From Bradymonadia bacterium (lineage in GTDB: Bacteria; Myxococcota_A; Bradymonadia; UBA7976; UBA1532), in NCBI GenBank assembly GCA_046290225.1, contig JBKAGE010000077.1, positions 96,001-160,000 of the forward strand: a stretch of 64,000 nucleotides of DNA, in the 5' to 3' direction. The translations under genes and the position numbers were made by a program. The notes below the pieces were generated by a model. The model saw only the letters and a program-made list of their open reading frames with translations, did not search any database and was not told the origin of the DNA. Of this stretch, positions 53,823-58,002 are shown in pieces. Positions within the stretch are counted from its first letter, which is position 1. Each line of letters starts with the position of its first letter.

Positions 53823-54104
53823 ATGACACAGCTCACGATCCACAAACTGGATGATGCCCTCGTACGCGCTCTCAGAGTCCGTGCGGCAGAGCGGGGCCAC
53901 TCCATAGAAGCTGAGGTTCGCGCCATCCTGCATGAAGTCCTCATGTCACGCCCCGACGAGCGCGCCTTAGTCGATCACATTCTCGCGATGCCTACTGATG
54001 CCACCGAGGAAGATCCATTCCCCAGGCTGAACGACGTATGCGACGTGATTCGCACCCGCACACGCATCGTGAATCCATTTGAATCAACAACTGAGCCGCA
54101 ATGA
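53823..54104 (+). CDS. FitA/StbC-like ribbon-helix-helix antitoxin fused to a PIN-toxin tail remnant
   Basis: MTQLTIHKLDDALVRALRVRAAERGHSIEAEVRAIL; tail RTRTRIVNPFE. Confidence 0.8.
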   Translation: MTQLTIHKLDDALVRALRVRAAERGHSIEAEVRAILHEVLMSRPDERALVDHILAMPTDATEEDPFPRLNDVCDVIRTRTRIVNPFESTTEPQ

Positions 54105-54718
54105 CAACACCACTGCGGACCCGCCGTGTCCATGCCCTGAACACCCTGAAATGGCTGGCGCCTTTCCTGTTCATCCTGATGGGTCACGGCAGCTGCGGTC
54201 CCCGAGGGCCAGAGGCGGCGTTGGCCACGTTGATGAGCGTGCCAGCGGTGTTGCTGGTGGGCTGTCTACTCCTCTTCAGCCTCGAAGCGCCCTGGGCACG
54301 CATCTCACCCCCCCGTACGGTGAAGACCTCCCCCTGGCGCAGATGGCAGTGGCTGCTCGGCGGCAGCCTGCTCTTCTCTCTGATCTGCCTGTTCGTGCCT
54401 CTGGGCCGGGAAGCCGTGGAGTGGTCGCTCTTCGCGGTGCCGGTCTTTGGTGGCTCCTGGCTGACCTTCATGCTGATCGCGTGGCGTTATCTACGCCACA
54501 TCGATCCCACAGGTGCACGGGCAGTGCGTGCGTCACCGGTCATCGCGCTGGGCATCACGCTGTGGCCGGTGATCCCGCTTTTTGCATCTTCGGGTGAAGC
54601 CCCCGGCGAGCTGCTGGCCTTCTGGTTCTACACCGGCGTGCTCGGCGCAGTGGGTGGGGTGATCTGGCTACTGCTCATGGCCGAAGCGTGGTGGCGCGCG
54701 CTGCACACGGACAGGTAG
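54101..54718 (+). CDS. Hypothetical membrane protein
   Basis: About six hydrophobic segments; ATGA overlap. Confidence 0.65.
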   Translation: MTTPLRTRRVHALNTLKWLAPFLFILMGHGSCGPRGPEAALATLMSVPAVLLVGCLLLFSLEAPWARISPPRTVKTSPWRRWQWLLGGSLLFSLICLFVPLGREAVEWSLFAVPVFGGSWLTFMLIAWRYLRHIDPTGARAVRASPVIALGITLWPVIPLFASSGEAPGELLAFWFYTGVLGAVGGVIWLLLMAEAWWRALHTDR

Positions 54719-54838: not shown

Positions 54839-56179
54839 GTGATGTCCCTGCTCTCGACCACTCTGCGCCCCATGGCCCGCTTCGGCCTCCCTGCGATCCT
54901 GGGCTTCGCGGGTCTCGCCGGCTGCGGCGCTCGCCCTGCACCTCAGCAGGAGACCCCCAAACAAGTGGTGGAGATGGACTCGATGGTCATCGAGTACCAG
55001 GGAGAGCAGGACGGCAAGTCGGTGACTGTGGCCTTCGACGATGCGGCGCTCTTCACCGAAGCCAAGGGCTACTTCGACGGTCAGAAGTTCGAAGAGGCCC
55101 AAGCAAGCTACGGCAAGCTGCTCAAGTATTTTCCCAAGAGCAGCTATGTGCACGCCGCGCTCTACAACCGGGGGCTGTGTTTCGAGCACTTGAAGCAGTA
55201 CGGCGAGGCTGCCAACCACTTCCGCCGGTACATTCAGCTGTCGAAGAGCCTCGAAGACCAGCGCGACGGTGAGTTCCGCTGGGGCTACAACCTGATCAAG
55301 ACCGAGGACTGGCCCACGGCCCTCGATCTCTACAATCGGCTGCTCAAAGATCCTCAGGGCCTCGGGGAGGCCGATCTCGCCGAGGCATATCTGCGCCGGG
55401 CCACGGCCCTCACGGCCATGGATCAGTTCGGCGAGTCAGAACGGGATCTCAAGAAGTCGATGCGCCTCATCGAGAAGGCCTACAGCGGGGTCACCGAAGG
55501 CAACCCGCTCTATGCCGAGGCCCACTTCCGCCGGGGCCAGATCTACGAGACGCTGTTCCGCAAAGTGCAGCTCAAGCTGCCCGCAGAGCAGATGAAGGTC
55601 GATCTACAGGACAAGGTGCGTTTCTTCAGGCAGTCGCAGTCGAGCTATCTCGACGCCCTCAACGTACGCGAGCCCTTCTGGGCCACGGCGGCAGGCTTCA
55701 AGCTCGGCGAGCTGTACGAGGTGTTCTACATGCACATCTTGCAGTCCGAGGTGCCCGACGAGTTCGATGACGAGACCCGACGCTTCTACTTCGTCGAGCT
55801 CAAGCGCAAGCTGCGCCCCCTCATGGAGCAGGCGCTGACGATCTACGAGAAGAACATCAGCATGAGCCAGCGGGTGGGCACGGAGAACGAGTGGGTGAGC
55901 GAGACCGACGCCCGCATGGCCCGGCTGCGCGATCTCCTGGAGGCGAGTCTCAAGGAAGAGAAGGCCATGGAAGAAGAGGAGCGGGCCTACGAAGAGGCCC
56001 AGAAAGCCCGGAAGTCGAAGAAGGGCAAGGGCAAGCCTCAGGCTTCCCGGGTCGACCTGAACGCCGCGCCGGTTGCGAGCCGTGGTTTGACGCCCCGAGA
56101 CATGCTGTCGCCGCGTCGGGCAGTGGCCCACCAACCTGCAGGCCGCCCGGGGAGTATCTCAAGTCGCGCAGGGGAGTAA
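54839..56179 (+). CDS. TPR-repeat lipoprotein
   Basis: Lipobox LAGC; ALYNRGLCFE and further TPR-like repeats. Confidence 0.8.
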   Translation: MMSLLSTTLRPMARFGLPAILGFAGLAGCGARPAPQQETPKQVVEMDSMVIEYQGEQDGKSVTVAFDDAALFTEAKGYFDGQKFEEAQASYGKLLKYFPKSSYVHAALYNRGLCFEHLKQYGEAANHFRRYIQLSKSLEDQRDGEFRWGYNLIKTEDWPTALDLYNRLLKDPQGLGEADLAEAYLRRATALTAMDQFGESERDLKKSMRLIEKAYSGVTEGNPLYAEAHFRRGQIYETLFRKVQLKLPAEQMKVDLQDKVRFFRQSQSSYLDALNVREPFWATAAGFKLGELYEVFYMHILQSEVPDEFDDETRRFYFVELKRKLRPLMEQALTIYEKNISMSQRVGTENEWVSETDARMARLRDLLEASLKEEKAMEEEERAYEEAQKARKSKKGKGKPQASRVDLNAAPVASRGLTPRDMLSPRRAVAHQPAGRPGSISSRAGE

Positions 56180-56232
56180 GAGGTCAGAACACAACGGCGG
56201 ACCTCTAATTCGAACTTTTTTGCACCGACGGC

Positions 56233-56260
56233 TTGACTCTCATCTATCAACCACTACACT
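56233..56260 (+). promoter_or_regulatory. sigma70-type promoter
   Basis: TTGACT-N16-TACACT. Confidence 0.65.
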
Positions 56261-56300
56261 CACAATCACTCAACAGAAGAACACCACGGAGCCTTTCGAG

Positions 56301-56381
56301 ATGACAGCACTCTTCCACACTGATGATCATGGTCGATGGTGGCCCATGACCCGGAGTGGGGGTGCTTTCTCGACGTGTTGA
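56301..56381 (+). CDS. Putative Trp leader peptide MTALFHTDDHGRWWPMTRSGGAFSTC
   Basis: GGAG at 56288-56291; tandem TGG TGG at 56337-56342; overlaps an antiterminator hairpin; below the ORF-track cut-off. Confidence 0.75.
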   Translation: MTALFHTDDHGRWWPMTRSGGAFSTC

Positions 56382-56405
56382 GCTGACTGGCTCCACGCTT
56401 CGTCC

Positions 56406-56444
56406 AAGCCCCCTCTGGCCATGTGCTCGAGGGGGTTTTCTTTT
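56406..56444 (+). terminator. Intrinsic terminator (attenuator) upstream of the tRNA
   Basis: AAGCCCCCTC-N13-GAGGGGGTTT 10-bp stem running into TTTTCTTTT. Confidence 0.85.
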
Positions 56445-56518
56445 GCCTTTCAAGCCCTTGACCACACGCCCCCACCGCTCCGGGTCGCCCCCATGCCTCC
56501 ACAATCAGGTGTCGTTAT

Positions 56519-56589
56519 AGGCCGGGCGCTGGGCGCAGGTAGGACTCCAAATCCAACCATGGAGGGTTCGATCCCCTCCCGGCCTGCCA
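56519..56589 (+). tRNA. tRNA-Trp (CCA), non-canonical with shortened D-arm, 71 nt
   Basis: Acceptor AGGCCGG/CCGGCCT, discriminator G, encoded CCA; anticodon loop CTCCAAA; T-arm GAGGG-TTCGATC-CCCTC. Confidence 0.88.
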
Positions 56590-56745
56590 TCACTCATATT
56601 GATACATGCGCGCGACCCAAACATGTATTAAACGCAACACTTGCACCACACCACAAGTGTATCAAAACTGAGTACCCTCCACAGGGTTGACGTACGTACA
56701 CATCCGGACCCAACCTGCACCTCCCACGGATGCAGTGAGAGGCAC

Positions 56746-57360
56746 ATGCCCGCCATCGACGAGAAGACCCAGCGCAGGCTGGAAGAGATCTTGGGTCATG
56801 CCCTCCCAAAAACCGCCTCAGGGGCTCTCGACCTGCGCGACGCCGATCTTCGAGAGGCTGAGCTCGAAGACGCCCACCTCCAAGGCGCCCACCTTCAAAA
56901 GGCCGACTTCCAAGACGCTCACCTGAACTGCGCGAACCTTCAGGCAGCCCAACTTCGCGGAGCAGACTTCCAATATGCTGATCTGAGTGACGTCGACTTT
57001 CGCGGCGCTGATCTCCGAGATGCGGGCTTCGAAGACGCCGACATTCAAGAAGCTGATTTCCGAGGGGCCCACCTCACGGGGGCCACAGGGCTCCCCGACT
57101 GGGTGATGCGCGGGCTCGACTCGGCCGGGCGCTTCACGCTCACGCAGCTGGTCTCGGCCATCAGGTCAGGCTTCGGTGAACTCTCGGGGGCCAACCTGCG
57201 CGAAGCCGACCTTCGAGGGGTCGCGCTCCAACACGCTGATCTCTGGGGCGCCAACCTGCAGGGCGCAATCCGCAGCGCAGAGGATCTGGTCCCTGAAGGC
57301 TGGACAGCACAACCCCGCTCAGATGATCCTGACAGCGTCTCCCTGCACAGAGCGAGCTGA
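56746..57360 (+). CDS. Pentapeptide-repeat protein
   Basis: A(D/N/H)L(R/Q)x repeats; start MPAIDE after GAGAGG. Confidence 0.88.
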   Translation: MPAIDEKTQRRLEEILGHALPKTASGALDLRDADLREAELEDAHLQGAHLQKADFQDAHLNCANLQAAQLRGADFQYADLSDVDFRGADLRDAGFEDADIQEADFRGAHLTGATGLPDWVMRGLDSAGRFTLTQLVSAIRSGFGELSGANLREADLRGVALQHADLWGANLQGAIRSAEDLVPEGWTAQPRSDDPDSVSLHRAS

Positions 57361-57362
57361 GG

Positions 57363-57968
57363 GTGAGGTGGCTCGACAACATCCGCCACGCCAAGCGACT
57401 GTATCGCGCTGATCCCGGGGCGCATCTGGGCGACGTCGCTGTGCTCAAGTGCGACGCTTTTGGCGTAGACGTTCGGCCACCTCTCCGAGAAGCGCTGGCC
57501 CCTGTGCGCGGGTGGATCCCAGAGGTCGATTTGGATCGACTCGCCGAGCTGCCGCCGAACACGTTTGGCCACGCTCTGGCCCGCTTCATGCGCCAGAACC
57601 AGCTGCACCCCTTCGTCATCACCGACGAGATCCCTGATGACATGCGCCGGCGAAATGCCTTTGGCATCCGCTACGCCACGACCCACGACATGTTCCACGT
57701 GTTGCTGGACTTCGACACCACCTGGGTGGGCGAGATGGGCGTGCTGGCCTTCGCGGTGGGTCAACGCTACACACGCTGGCAGGCCCTCGGCGCTGCCCTC
57801 GCGTGGCTCATCTACTCGGTGCGCTCGGGCTTCAAGCTGCGAGCGCTCTGGCGCGCATGGCGTCGCGGACGCGCTGCGGGCCGTCGAGCCCCCTTCTTGT
57901 TGGGCCTGCGTCTGGAAGAGCGGTTCGAGAGCGACTTGAACGCTCTACGTCGAGAGCTGAGGCTTTGA
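57363..57968 (+). CDS. Coq4-family protein
   Basis: LDRLAELPPNTFG, THDMFHVL...GE (HDxxH...E). Confidence 0.8.
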   Translation: MRWLDNIRHAKRLYRADPGAHLGDVAVLKCDAFGVDVRPPLREALAPVRGWIPEVDLDRLAELPPNTFGHALARFMRQNQLHPFVITDEIPDDMRRRNAFGIRYATTHDMFHVLLDFDTTWVGEMGVLAFAVGQRYTRWQALGAALAWLIYSVRSGFKLRALWRAWRRGRAAGRRAPFLLGLRLEERFESDLNALRRELRL

Positions 57969-58002
57969 CGTACTGGTTACGCGTCGAAGTGGGCAATTGT
58001 GA

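Follow-up and report, generated by a model that had tools for sequence, protein, structure and literature searches.

Leader-peptide attenuation is a textbook mode of control for genes of amino-acid synthesis, amino-acid transport and a few synthetases, which raises the question of why a leader ORF with two adjacent Trp codons and a U-tailed terminator should stand in front of a tRNA-Trp gene in the 64,000-nucleotide stretch of DNA analysed here (hereafter the window). The initial annotation of this DNA had read the locus as a feedback attenuator that makes a spare tRNA-Trp, and this proposal gains support from paralogy, namely from four codon-matched sister units in the same genome. Our literature searches turned up no earlier report of tRNA genes controlled by a leader peptide. 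Judging from the sequence, we consider it rather likely that the window carries a ribosome-mediated transcription attenuator gating a supernumerary, structurally unusual tRNA-Trp, and back-up tRNAs of this type are probably made only when ribosomes read their cognate codons slowly.

All features of the window described below lie on the forward strand. A sigma-70-like promoter (-35 TTGACT, 16-nt spacer, -10 TACACT) occupies positions 56233-56260, as had been annotated, and agrees with the consensus at 9 of 12 positions; the region 55500-57500 contains 2 promoter-like sites, while 0.1 would be expected from shuffled sequences. The -35 and -10 types of this promoter are also seen ahead of a paralogous leader on contig C37, and the 10-nt block at 56266-56275, just after the -10, is identical to the 5' end of that leader, which heads a Leu/Ser/Thr/Tyr unit. 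The Shine-Dalgarno block at 56286-56296 is common to the window leader and those on contigs C20 and C79 (GGAGCC..TT), and its distance to the start codon is 9, 9 and 8 nt in the window, C20 and C79 leaders, respectively. In the window, the GGAG at 56288-56291 precedes by 9 nt the ATG at 56301 that opens a leader ORF of 26 codons (56301-56381, TGA stop at 56379-56381), which is predicted to be translated. Its codons 13-14 are the tandem TGG TGG at 56337-56342, the proposed sensing site and the only leader codons read by the downstream tRNA (2/25); the ribosome-binding site, the ORF and the tandem codons all lie where the initial annotation had placed them. The U-tailed terminator claimed at 56406-56444 was likewise recovered (stem 56406-56438 plus a U-run to 56444, -21.2 kcal/mol), with 8 pairs at a probability of at least 0.93; it is absent from a simple terminator scan because its loop exceeds the limit of that scan.

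A 74-nt spacer (56445-56518) separates this terminator from the tRNA gene. A promoter of the tRNA's own in this spacer had been named as evidence that would speak against attenuation, and our promoter scan found no promoter-like site there, although the spacer has space for a promoter of a type outside the scan's model. This space would suit a different reading, in which promoter, small ORF and terminator make up an independent short transcript, be it a small protein gene or an sRNA, while the tRNA is transcribed from the spacer and the two Trp codons are coincidental. A terminated attenuator RNA can indeed act in trans, as does rnTrpL of Sinorhizobium meliloti according to the available part of PMC6614838. 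The Trp content of the leader (2/25 codons) gives a raw binomial p of 0.037 that is lost after correction. In an unbiased scan covering each of the genome's 47 tRNA units, the window unit fell outside the 14 best of 47, and a chance W-rich ORF, situated 799-847 nt ahead of the canonical tRNA-Trp and by its position probably within a gene, scored higher. Taken alone, the enrichment in Trp codons is not significant. We nevertheless hold the independent transcript to be unlikely, and the arguments against it come, besides the promoter scan, from the sister units and from related tRNAs elsewhere, both treated below.

The RNA of the leader can adopt alternative folds in silico. Segment 2, a G-rich tract at 56354-56367, provides the 5' strand of an irregular antiterminator hairpin (56358-56414, -29.0 kcal/mol) that holds the leader stop codon and takes up 9 of the 10 bases of the terminator 5' arm, in agreement with the initial description of a hairpin sequestering that arm. 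This hairpin is the minimum-energy fold of 56356-56424, the RNA that exists before the 3' arm of the terminator; among 500 dinucleotide shuffles, its pairing was reached in 30 and its energy in 5. In minimum-energy folds without a ribosome, segment 2 pairs instead with segment 1 (56307-56318), which would thus act as an anti-antiterminator, and the Trp codons are placed between these two segments. Folding with ribosome footprints, a check that had been suggested, gave results that depend on the masking: the antiterminator appears in the model when segment 1 is masked as well or when RNA preceding the stall is left out, but masking one stalled ribosome leaves segment 2 on segment 1, and termination is then predicted. 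The fold model would therefore need the assumption that pairing is impossible between segments on either side of a ribosome. When the mask is placed at the stop codon, the modelled G-tract can still form pairs with the terminator arm. Equilibrium folds at full length always contain the terminator, as an independent short transcript would also have it. Only a stall in mid-ORF, where the two Trp codons lie, leaves segment 2 free in the fold model.

According to the attenuation model, transcription would begin at the promoter at 56233-56260 and a ribosome would translate the 26-codon leader. When Trp-tRNA is plentiful, the ribosome would reach the TGA at 56379 and mask the inner portion of the antiterminator; the terminator at 56406-56444 would then form, and transcription would halt about 75 nt short of the tRNA. 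When UGG is decoded slowly, the ribosome would stall at 56337-56342 and leave segment 2 (56354-56367) free to pair with the terminator 5' arm in the antiterminator (56358-56414), upon which RNA polymerase would read through into the tRNA gene, and the resulting tRNA would be charged and used in decoding. In untranslated RNA, segment 2 would be held on segment 1 (56307-56318) and transcription would terminate, as in the E. coli trp leader. The trpL leader of E. coli has a short ORF with two adjacent Trp codons, exclusive 1:2, 2:3 and 3:4 helices and a U-tailed terminator, and it terminates both with a ribosome at the stop codon and as untranslated RNA. The window leader resembles it in its short ORF with tandem Trp codons, in its four pairing segments as folded in silico and in its U-tailed terminator. 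However, the Trp codons lie inside segment 1 in trpL and between segments 1 and 2 here, the leader is 26 codons long, and the product is a tRNA gene rather than biosynthetic enzymes. An Rfam search of the window at gathering score gave no match to any leader family, including Trp_leader, and in 56100-56800 neither a leader family nor a T-box was matched even at E-values up to 10.

The genome contains four further units in which a leader ORF is followed by a terminator and then by tRNA genes, all with leaders on the reverse strand of their contigs. The C37 leader (79230-79337) precedes 10 tRNAs for Leu, Ser, Thr and Tyr, the C20 leader (1499-1606) 9 tRNAs for Val, Arg, Lys and Ile, the C42 leader (93743-93841) 7 tRNAs for Asp, Glu, Phe and Gln, and the C79 leader (73494-73673) 7 tRNAs for Thr, Gly and Ala. 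Residues cognate to the downstream tRNAs make up 21/34, 20/34, 17/31 and 24/58 codons of the C37, C20, C42 and C79 leaders, with binomial p values of 4e-7, 2e-6, 2e-5 and 0.014, respectively, where the C42 and C79 ORFs carry a selection effect, having been chosen by enrichment, and C79 alone is not significant. The C37, C20 and C42 leaders survived Bonferroni correction in the unbiased scan of the 47 tRNA units, which also yielded clear false positives in coding regions (C35, C34). Among 120 permutations of leaders and arrays, the true pairing gave the best amino-acid match. At the codon level, the leaders use 11/14 (C37), 10/12 (C20), 7/8 (C42), 9/11 (C79) and 1/1 (window) of the codons readable by their arrays, a sum reached by 1 of 120 permutations. 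On C34, a Pro-rich ORF ahead of a tRNA-Pro looked like another unit with a single tRNA but was rejected: the ORF is an alternative frame of a coding region, and an ordinary promoter adjoins the tRNA.

The paralogues also have the geometry of a switch. In each of them, the 5' arm of the terminator pairs with the stretch 2-19 bases ahead of the leader stop codon, the site of a terminating ribosome, through 11, 9, 10 and 11 arm bases in C37, C20, C42 and C79, which were reached by 2, 13, 4 and 0 of 200 shuffles, respectively, and G-rich tracts analogous to segment 2 end all four leader ORFs. The window leader has short sequence blocks in common with three of them (C37, C20, C79), while BLAST of the window leader against its own genome found no second copy beyond words of 14-31 nt. 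Taken together, these comparisons make it likely that the window unit belongs to a set of at least five switches, each codon-matched to its spare tRNA block, and that it is the one with a single tRNA. The pairing of Trp leader and tRNA stands as first described, although the case is not the singular one it had seemed to be. An independent short transcript is hard to reconcile with a layout that recurs four times in the genome with a codon content tracking the downstream tRNAs.

The same comparisons bear on a less specific form of control, in which the leader would be a general sensor of slowed translation, as under ribosome-targeting antibiotics or global stress, a stall anywhere in the ORF would open the switch, and the two Trp codons would be incidental. 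We consider this improbable, since no leader is enriched for any tRNA set but its own, the enrichment for the amino acids of any other array being at or below background (at most 1.4-fold throughout), which is unexpected for a non-specific stall sensor, and since only a stall at the Trp codons in mid-ORF frees segment 2. It draws on tRNA arrays of the Anabaena L-array type, which are induced by translation inhibitors according to the available text of PMC8421152, and on metagenomic arrays headed by a tRNA of the window family, in which a uORF of mixed composition precedes a nearly complete set of tRNAs.

The initial annotation had placed a tRNA with the cognate CCA anticodon about 75 nt downstream of the terminator. 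ARAGORN indeed calls a tRNA-Trp(CCA) of 71 nt at 56519-56589, starting 74 nt after the terminator U-run, but this tRNA is not canonical. Only 14 nt lie between its acceptor and anticodon stems, and its D-arm, drawn by ARAGORN as a 3-bp stem with a 4-nt loop, is below the normal size of a 4-bp stem and a 7-11-nt loop. It falls below the gathering cut-off of the Rfam tRNA model RF00005 (29 bits) and is absent among the 90 matches of that model in its own genome; its best Rfam match is tRNA-Sec, with 30.5 bits, below the cut-off of 47. The variable loop is short and the anticodon stem carries an A/A mismatch, while the 7/5 acceptor/T branch is normal and a perfect 7-bp acceptor stem, the T arm, the anticodon loop, the discriminator G and the encoded CCA end are retained. 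The canonical tRNA-Trp, for which a check had been advised, was found elsewhere in the genome (G000:C78:276670-276743), and the window tRNA differs from it throughout.

The window tRNA belongs to a covarying family, compared here in 25 distinct sequences. In this alignment, 93.8% of the cells are paired and 13 of 20 pairs have changed on both sides, so that the acceptor, anticodon and T stems of the cloverleaf are maintained through compensatory change; the three invariant D-stem pairs are a consequence of the design of the search pattern. Of five measures of covariation, four were reached by 0/500 shuffles and the fifth by 1/500, and slid controls were 35-50% paired. This pattern indicates that the family is under selection as a tRNA. 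The anticodon loop is invariant, the CCA anticodon and discriminator G occur in 25/25 sequences, and A1-U72 occurs in 22/25, the window copy included. The bacterial TrpRS identity set comprises the anticodon CCA, discriminator G73 and A1-U72, and the window tRNA, a putative Trp acceptor, has all of these nucleotides.

Among the 47 family loci, 36 have at least one further tRNA gene, whereas the window tRNA is the sole tRNA in the 64-kb window and so lies outside any dense array. Strong matches to the family model occur sporadically, in 3 of 113 genomes of the class. By these comparisons the window tRNA is from a family found mostly in horizontally spread tRNA arrays and not an ordinary duplicate. 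Its solitary position among relatives that mostly sit in arrays, together with the sporadic distribution, the score below the Rfam tRNA cut-off and the A/A mismatch, could also be expected of a decaying, functionless remnant, either the stranded fragment of a tRNA array that was acquired horizontally and was once larger, or the leftover of an integration site. The second of these forms was rejected, because both halves of the paired acceptor stem are present and the sequence differs throughout from the canonical tRNA-Trp. Decay as such appears very unlikely: the window copy is the best of all matches to the family model R1 (88.4 bits), the tRNA keeps the stem, arm, loop and end features listed above, and the promoter, GGAG, ORF and terminator are intact. 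Around the locus, blastn of 55000-58000 against a phage collection gave no match, and the neighbouring FitA-like protein, its 205-aa partner and a pentapeptide-repeat protein yielded no informative family beyond their Pfam names.

The initial annotation had proposed testing homologous tRNAs in related genomes for a Trp-rich uORF and a terminator upstream. The layout of uORF and terminator does recur, but no tandem Trp codons and no orthologous leader were found. At the DNA level, no orthologue of the window leader was found in 60 relatives or in 112 other genomes of the class, all of other genera; apart from canonical tRNA-Trp genes, these searches yielded a single homologous tRNA (G095) and, in a coding region, a single match attributed to chance (L017). 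Neither did the C37 and C20 leaders have DNA-level orthologues in the class, where only short matches to their terminator parts were found, which we treated as chance because the six loci checked had no tRNA. Genomes G095 and G099 have a promoter, a uORF and a terminator, and then a tRNA of the window family. Such a tRNA also comes first in 14 metagenomic or genomic arrays of one lineage, of which 12 show a promoter, a GGAG, a uORF of 54-56 codons and a terminator at a distance of about 20 nt from the tRNA. The uORFs before related tRNAs have one or two separate Trp codons. In the metagenomic lineage the uORF frame is preserved by 3n indels, and its substitutions are without third-position excess (344/443/371), with 190 synonymous vs 679 non-synonymous codon differences. 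In G099 and this lineage the gap between terminator and tRNA is only 15-20 nt, so there is no room for a promoter, which argues further against separate transcription of leader and tRNA.

Since an extra tRNA is no cure for the lack of an amino acid, a circuit of the proposed kind most likely serves to replace scarce or damaged tRNA. More tentatively, and with somewhat less than even confidence, we suggest that the genome maintains a modular back-up decoding system, in which at least five spare tRNA blocks, each behind a leader written in exactly its codons, would be transcribed only upon slow decoding of those codons and would sense tRNA loss or damage, such as that caused by anticodon nucleases from competitors, phages or toxin-antitoxin modules, with the Trp unit as its minimal form. 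D-arm changes in tRNA-Trp are known to alter the decoding of UGA. The remodelled D-arm here may protect the replacement tRNA from the agent that inactivates the housekeeping tRNA-Trp, or it may alter what the replacement decodes. With tRNAs as the regulated products, the circuit would close directly on the decoder that it measures. If correct, the model would provide a simple sensor of tRNA depletion and natural codon-specific switches for synthetic biology, and the window unit, which combines a single amino acid with two codons and a single tRNA, would be the cleanest test case of the set.

Similar logic is known from multivalent attenuators such as the thr, ilvGMEDA and ilvBN leaders, whose composition mirrors the amino acids sensed, and the pheM leader of pheST demonstrates that genes of the translation apparatus can be controlled by leader-peptide attenuation. 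The sister leaders resemble the multivalent ones in reading 3-4 amino acids each, but they sample nearly every array-readable codon rather than using runs of single codons, and what they would control are the decoders themselves. A T-box recognises uncharged tRNA by direct binding and has no need of translation. Terminator read-through upon shortage of one charged tRNA species, as proposed here, would be common to both, whereas the control in the window would rely on translation.

The model would also account for the induction of supernumerary tRNA genes and arrays that are otherwise silent. The one array that has been studied is the inducible L-array or trn operon of Anabaena sp. PCC 7120, for which the available text of PMC8421152 proposes control via direct repeats in the promoter and a presumed repressor; the words attenuat-, terminator and leader are absent from its main text as available. 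Like the L-array as described there, the tRNA genes considered here are supernumerary, horizontally spread, apart from the housekeeping set and, in our proposal, on when translation is impaired, and relatives of the window tRNA sit in such arrays. They differ in that control would lie in a leader predicted to be translated and in a terminator, and in that the units are split by amino-acid group, one of them with a single tRNA.

As for the tRNA itself, the available parts of two reports describe other unusual forms, namely allo-tRNAs with 8/4 or 9/3 acceptor/T branches in bacteria (PMC5389517) and tRNA-Trp(CCA) with 4-bp anticodon stems, with Myxococcota among the phyla that have unusual tRNA-Trp (PMC13092985). 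The window tRNA is similar to the forms described there in its non-standard cloverleaf, its patchy distribution and its being missed or mis-scored by standard models. It departs from the canonical form in its 14-nt D region, which does not appear in the descriptions in those parts of PMC5389517 and PMC13092985, and the short-D-arm tRNA-Trp family represents a conserved bacterial tRNA form overlooked by standard tRNA models.

We located on the forward strand of the window every element that the initial annotation had read as a trpL-type leader-peptide attenuator gating a spare tRNA-Trp, each in the position assigned to it there: a sigma-70-like promoter (TTGACT-N16-TACACT, 56233-56260), a GGAG ribosome-binding site (56288-56291) nine bases 5' of the start codon, a 26-codon leader ORF from ATG 56301 to TGA 56379-56381 with tandem Trp codons (TGG TGG, 56337-56342; WW below), a terminator made of a strong hairpin and a U-run (56406-56444, -21.2 kcal/mol by folding), and a tRNA-Trp(CCA) gene (56519-56589), the sole tRNA that ARAGORN predicts in the 64-kb window. 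The promoter scan over 2 kb returned two such sites versus 0.1 expected from shuffles, while a simple terminator scan passed over the hairpin because of its long loop. A TPR protein gene ends upstream of the unit at 56179, and downstream of the tRNA are genes for a pentapeptide-repeat protein (56746-57360) and a Coq4-like protein; as had been claimed, the unit is not followed by any gene for Trp biosynthesis, Trp transport or a Trp synthetase. Two short perfect hairpins without U-runs at 56601-56659, an AT-richer stretch between the tRNA and the pentapeptide-repeat gene, could be processing or termination signals. About 1.7 kb upstream of the unit, 53823-54718 holds what may be a toxin-antitoxin pair, namely, a FitA-like ribbon-helix-helix antitoxin gene (PF22513) and a 205-aa ORF that share 4 nt; the ORF is matched by neither Pfam nor NCBIfam.

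We inspected the regions upstream of the other tRNA clusters in the same genome and found two in which the first tRNA comes after a short ORF, equipped with a promoter and a ribosome-binding site, and a strong U-tailed terminator. At C37:77269-79067, an array of Leu, Ser, Thr, Tyr, Ser, Leu, Ser, Tyr, Ser and Leu tRNAs follows a 35-codon ORF with 11 Ser, 8 Leu, 1 Thr and 1 Tyr codons, and at C20:227-1226, an array of Val, Arg, Lys, Arg, Ile, Val, Arg, Lys and Arg tRNAs follows another 35-codon ORF, in which Arg, Val, Lys and Ile take up 20 of the 34 codons after the start. An enrichment scan supplied two more leader ORFs, each with a terminator behind it, namely, a 32-codon ORF (cognate residues 17/31) before an Asp, Glu, Phe, Gln, Asp, Glu, Gln array (C42:92366-93501) and a 59-codon ORF (24/58) before a Thr, Gly, Ala array (C79:72099-73132). 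Since these two leaders were chosen by their enrichment, their p-values are inflated; the enrichment of the C42 leader survives correction (6.5e-4), and that of the C79 leader alone fails. An unbiased scan, which covered 47 tRNA units of the genome and yields false positives in coding regions, placed the window's unit outside the best 14, and the enrichment of WW alone is weak, with a raw p of 0.037.

When the five leaders were tabulated against the five tRNA sets, all diagonal cells were enriched (6.6-, 2.9-, 2.8-, 2.8- and 1.5-fold) versus at most 1.4-fold in every off-diagonal cell, and the true assignment of leaders to arrays was the single best of 120 permutations for amino-acid matching. 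Under wobble rules, the tRNAs of each array can read 20/34 (C37), 19/34 (C20), 17/31 (C42), 21/58 (C79) and 2/25 (window) codons of their own leader, which uses 11/14, 10/12, 7/8, 9/11 and 1/1 of the readable codons, respectively; the observed sum for codon matching was reached by only one of 120 permutations. The window's and C37 leaders also have a 10-nt block in common (56266-56275), and a GGAGCC..TT ribosome-binding block is common to the window's, C20 and C79 leaders; we therefore take the five units to be related, not just similar. This comparison amends the initial annotation, in that the genome has at least five predicted codon-matched switches, the window's unit among them. Its spare tRNA genes fall into amino-acid-group blocks, each with its own codon-matched leader upstream. 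Several tRNAs of the C37 array score low on the Rfam tRNA model, and three are better matched by tRNA-Sec.

We folded the RNA of the four sister units as present before synthesis of the terminator 3' arm. The terminator 5' arm pairs with a tract rich in G that precedes the stop codon of the leader by 2-19 nt, with 11, 9, 10 and 11 arm bases paired, values reached by 2, 13, 4 and 0 of 200 shuffles, respectively. Since this tract is the seat of a terminating ribosome, a ribosome at the stop codon should free the arm for the terminator, and a stall farther upstream should keep the antiterminator in place. In the fold of the window's untranslated RNA, the G-rich 5' strand of the antiterminator (segment 2, 56354-56367) pairs with an anti-antiterminator (segment 1, 56307-56318), and the terminator arm is free. 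When only the RNA downstream of a WW-stalled ribosome is folded, the antiterminator (56358-56414) is the minimum-energy structure at -29.0 kcal/mol and occupies 9 of the 10 terminator-arm bases, its pairing being reached by 30 and its energy by 5 of 500 shuffles. These predicted folds would follow the four-segment logic of the E. coli trp leader.

The initial annotation had proposed that a ribosome stalled at WW leaves the antiterminator free and that one reaching the stop codon melts it. The antiterminator was recovered on RNA from which the upstream part was excluded, but not when the mask covered a single WW-stalled ribosome, across which the model continues to pair segment 1 with segment 2; the antiterminator formed in masked folds only when segment 1 was also masked, e.g., by a queued ribosome. 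We infer that segments within 4 nt of either ribosome edge are unable to pair. With the ribosome masked at the stop codon, the model still lets the G-tract touch the arm. The terminator is present in every full-length equilibrium fold, and therefore the switch must be kinetic, as in known attenuators. An unrecognised promoter might instead lie in the 74-nt spacer between terminator and tRNA; paralogy with the four codon-matched sister units and the modelled switch geometry support the attenuator interpretation, and a leader-peptide attenuator probably gates the window's tRNA-Trp.

The tRNA itself is unusual. Rfam at its gathering score gives no match anywhere in the window, and the gene is missing from the 90 RF00005 matches in the genome, its best Rfam match being tRNA-Sec (30.5 bits versus a cut-off of 47). 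In the ARAGORN drawing, the 7-bp acceptor stem, the T arm and the anticodon arm (stem at 56540-56556, with one A/A mismatch) are normal, but only 14 nt separate the acceptor and anticodon stems, drawn with a 3-bp D stem and a 4-nt loop. The genome (8.58 Mb, 83 contigs, 96 ARAGORN tRNAs) does contain a separate canonical tRNA-Trp of 74 nt (C78:276670-276743), for which the initial annotation had suggested looking. A W-rich ORF 799-847 nt upstream of that canonical gene, by its position inside a gene, counts among the false positives of the unbiased scan. The window's tRNA is a non-canonical, array-type species, which revises the earlier reading. A 2026 study (PMC13092985) links tRNA-Trp(CCA) with 4-bp anticodon stems, and also D-arm changes, to UGA reading; the window's leader ORF terminates in TGA. 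ARAGORN also predicts in this genome a CTA-anticodon tRNA labelled Pyl (C14:27995-28067), possibly an amber suppressor, and a tRNA-Sec (C75:162683-162772).

A homologue found in another genome of the class (G095) shares the D region, and its other stems all carry compensatory changes. A pattern scan of genome contigs gave 50 loci, comprising 11 with a short-D-arm tRNA-Trp and 39 chance matches, and one of metagenome contigs gave 39, of which four lack tRNA features and one is cut. From the 29 distinct family sequences, we aligned 24 with the window's copy (25 rows), leaving out L086, a near-duplicate of retained rows, and four sequences whose ends fall outside the 68-nt register (L031, L080, L090 and L091). 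Standard pairs fill 93.8% of cells versus 35-50% in slid controls, and both partners vary in 13 of the 20 pairs, a count reached by one of 500 shuffles; none of the 500 reached the other four of five covariation measures. As the D region was set by the search pattern, the three invariant D-stem pairs are uninformative. No variation occurs in the anticodon loop, with its CCA, or at the discriminator G, and A1-U72 occurs in 22 of the 25 sequences. Pair 26:34 is unpaired in 7/25 members.

Scored with a model of the family (R1), the window's copy reaches 88.4 bits versus 33.7 bits for the canonical tRNA-Trp. Among 113 genomes of the class, strong matches occur only in the window's genome, G095 (84.3 bits) and G099 (65.1 bits), and the family is therefore sporadic there; the other 31 genomes with a match score 36-42 bits over about 73 nt, and the weak matches inspected (L010, L011 and L015) are canonical tRNA-Trp genes. 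Most members lie within dense tRNA arrays of Myxococcota metagenome bins, one in a Longimicrobiales bin (L031), one in a Nocardioides genome (L072), and some directly after protein genes on metagenome contigs (L073, L083, L095, L090, L093, L105 and L110). Covariation and distribution thus indicate that the short-D-arm tRNA-Trp family is real and widespread. The Rfam tRNA model overlooks the window's copy of this conserved tRNA-Trp(CCA) form with a 14-nt D region.

We found no orthologue of the leader in the 112 other genomes of the class, and among the loci compared, tandem Trp codons occur only in the window's leader. In G095 and G099, a uORF of 60-68 codons, two of them separate Trp codons, lies between a promoter and a terminator, and the tRNA behind them is followed by an HNH endonuclease gene; the HNH-type endonuclease-like ORF after the tRNA in both (L014 and L116) makes the locus orthologous between them. 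The pentapeptide-repeat gene takes the place of this ORF in the window. One metagenomic lineage contributes 14 loci whose arrays, near-complete tRNA sets, start at a short-D-arm tRNA-Trp. In the 12 with enough upstream sequence, a promoter, GGAG and a uORF precede a terminator that lies about 20 nt from the tRNA; their uORF (54-56 codons, frame kept by two 3n indels) is mixed in composition and has Trp codons singly, at one or two places. It has no excess of third-position substitutions, and the act of translation rather than the peptide would matter here. The predicted promoter-uORF-terminator-tRNA architecture thus recurs with unrelated leaders.

The proposed mechanism is that of a classical leader-peptide attenuator, the difference being a tRNA gene as the regulated product. 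A broad survey of premature terminators leaves tRNA genes unmentioned (PMC2965389), and full-text searches of openly accessible articles yielded no paper joining tRNA-array with leader-peptide or attenuator terms. The window's unit is very convenient to test. A silent tRNA array in Anabaena, the L-array, is induced by translation stress through promoter repeats (PMC8421152); that paper's main text is without the words attenuator, terminator and leader. At locus L024, whose array starts with a short-D-arm tRNA-Trp, a repeat of roughly 21 nt occurs in about eight tandem copies, some 250-450 nt upstream of that tRNA, and recalls the direct repeats in the promoter controlling the Anabaena array (PMC8421152).
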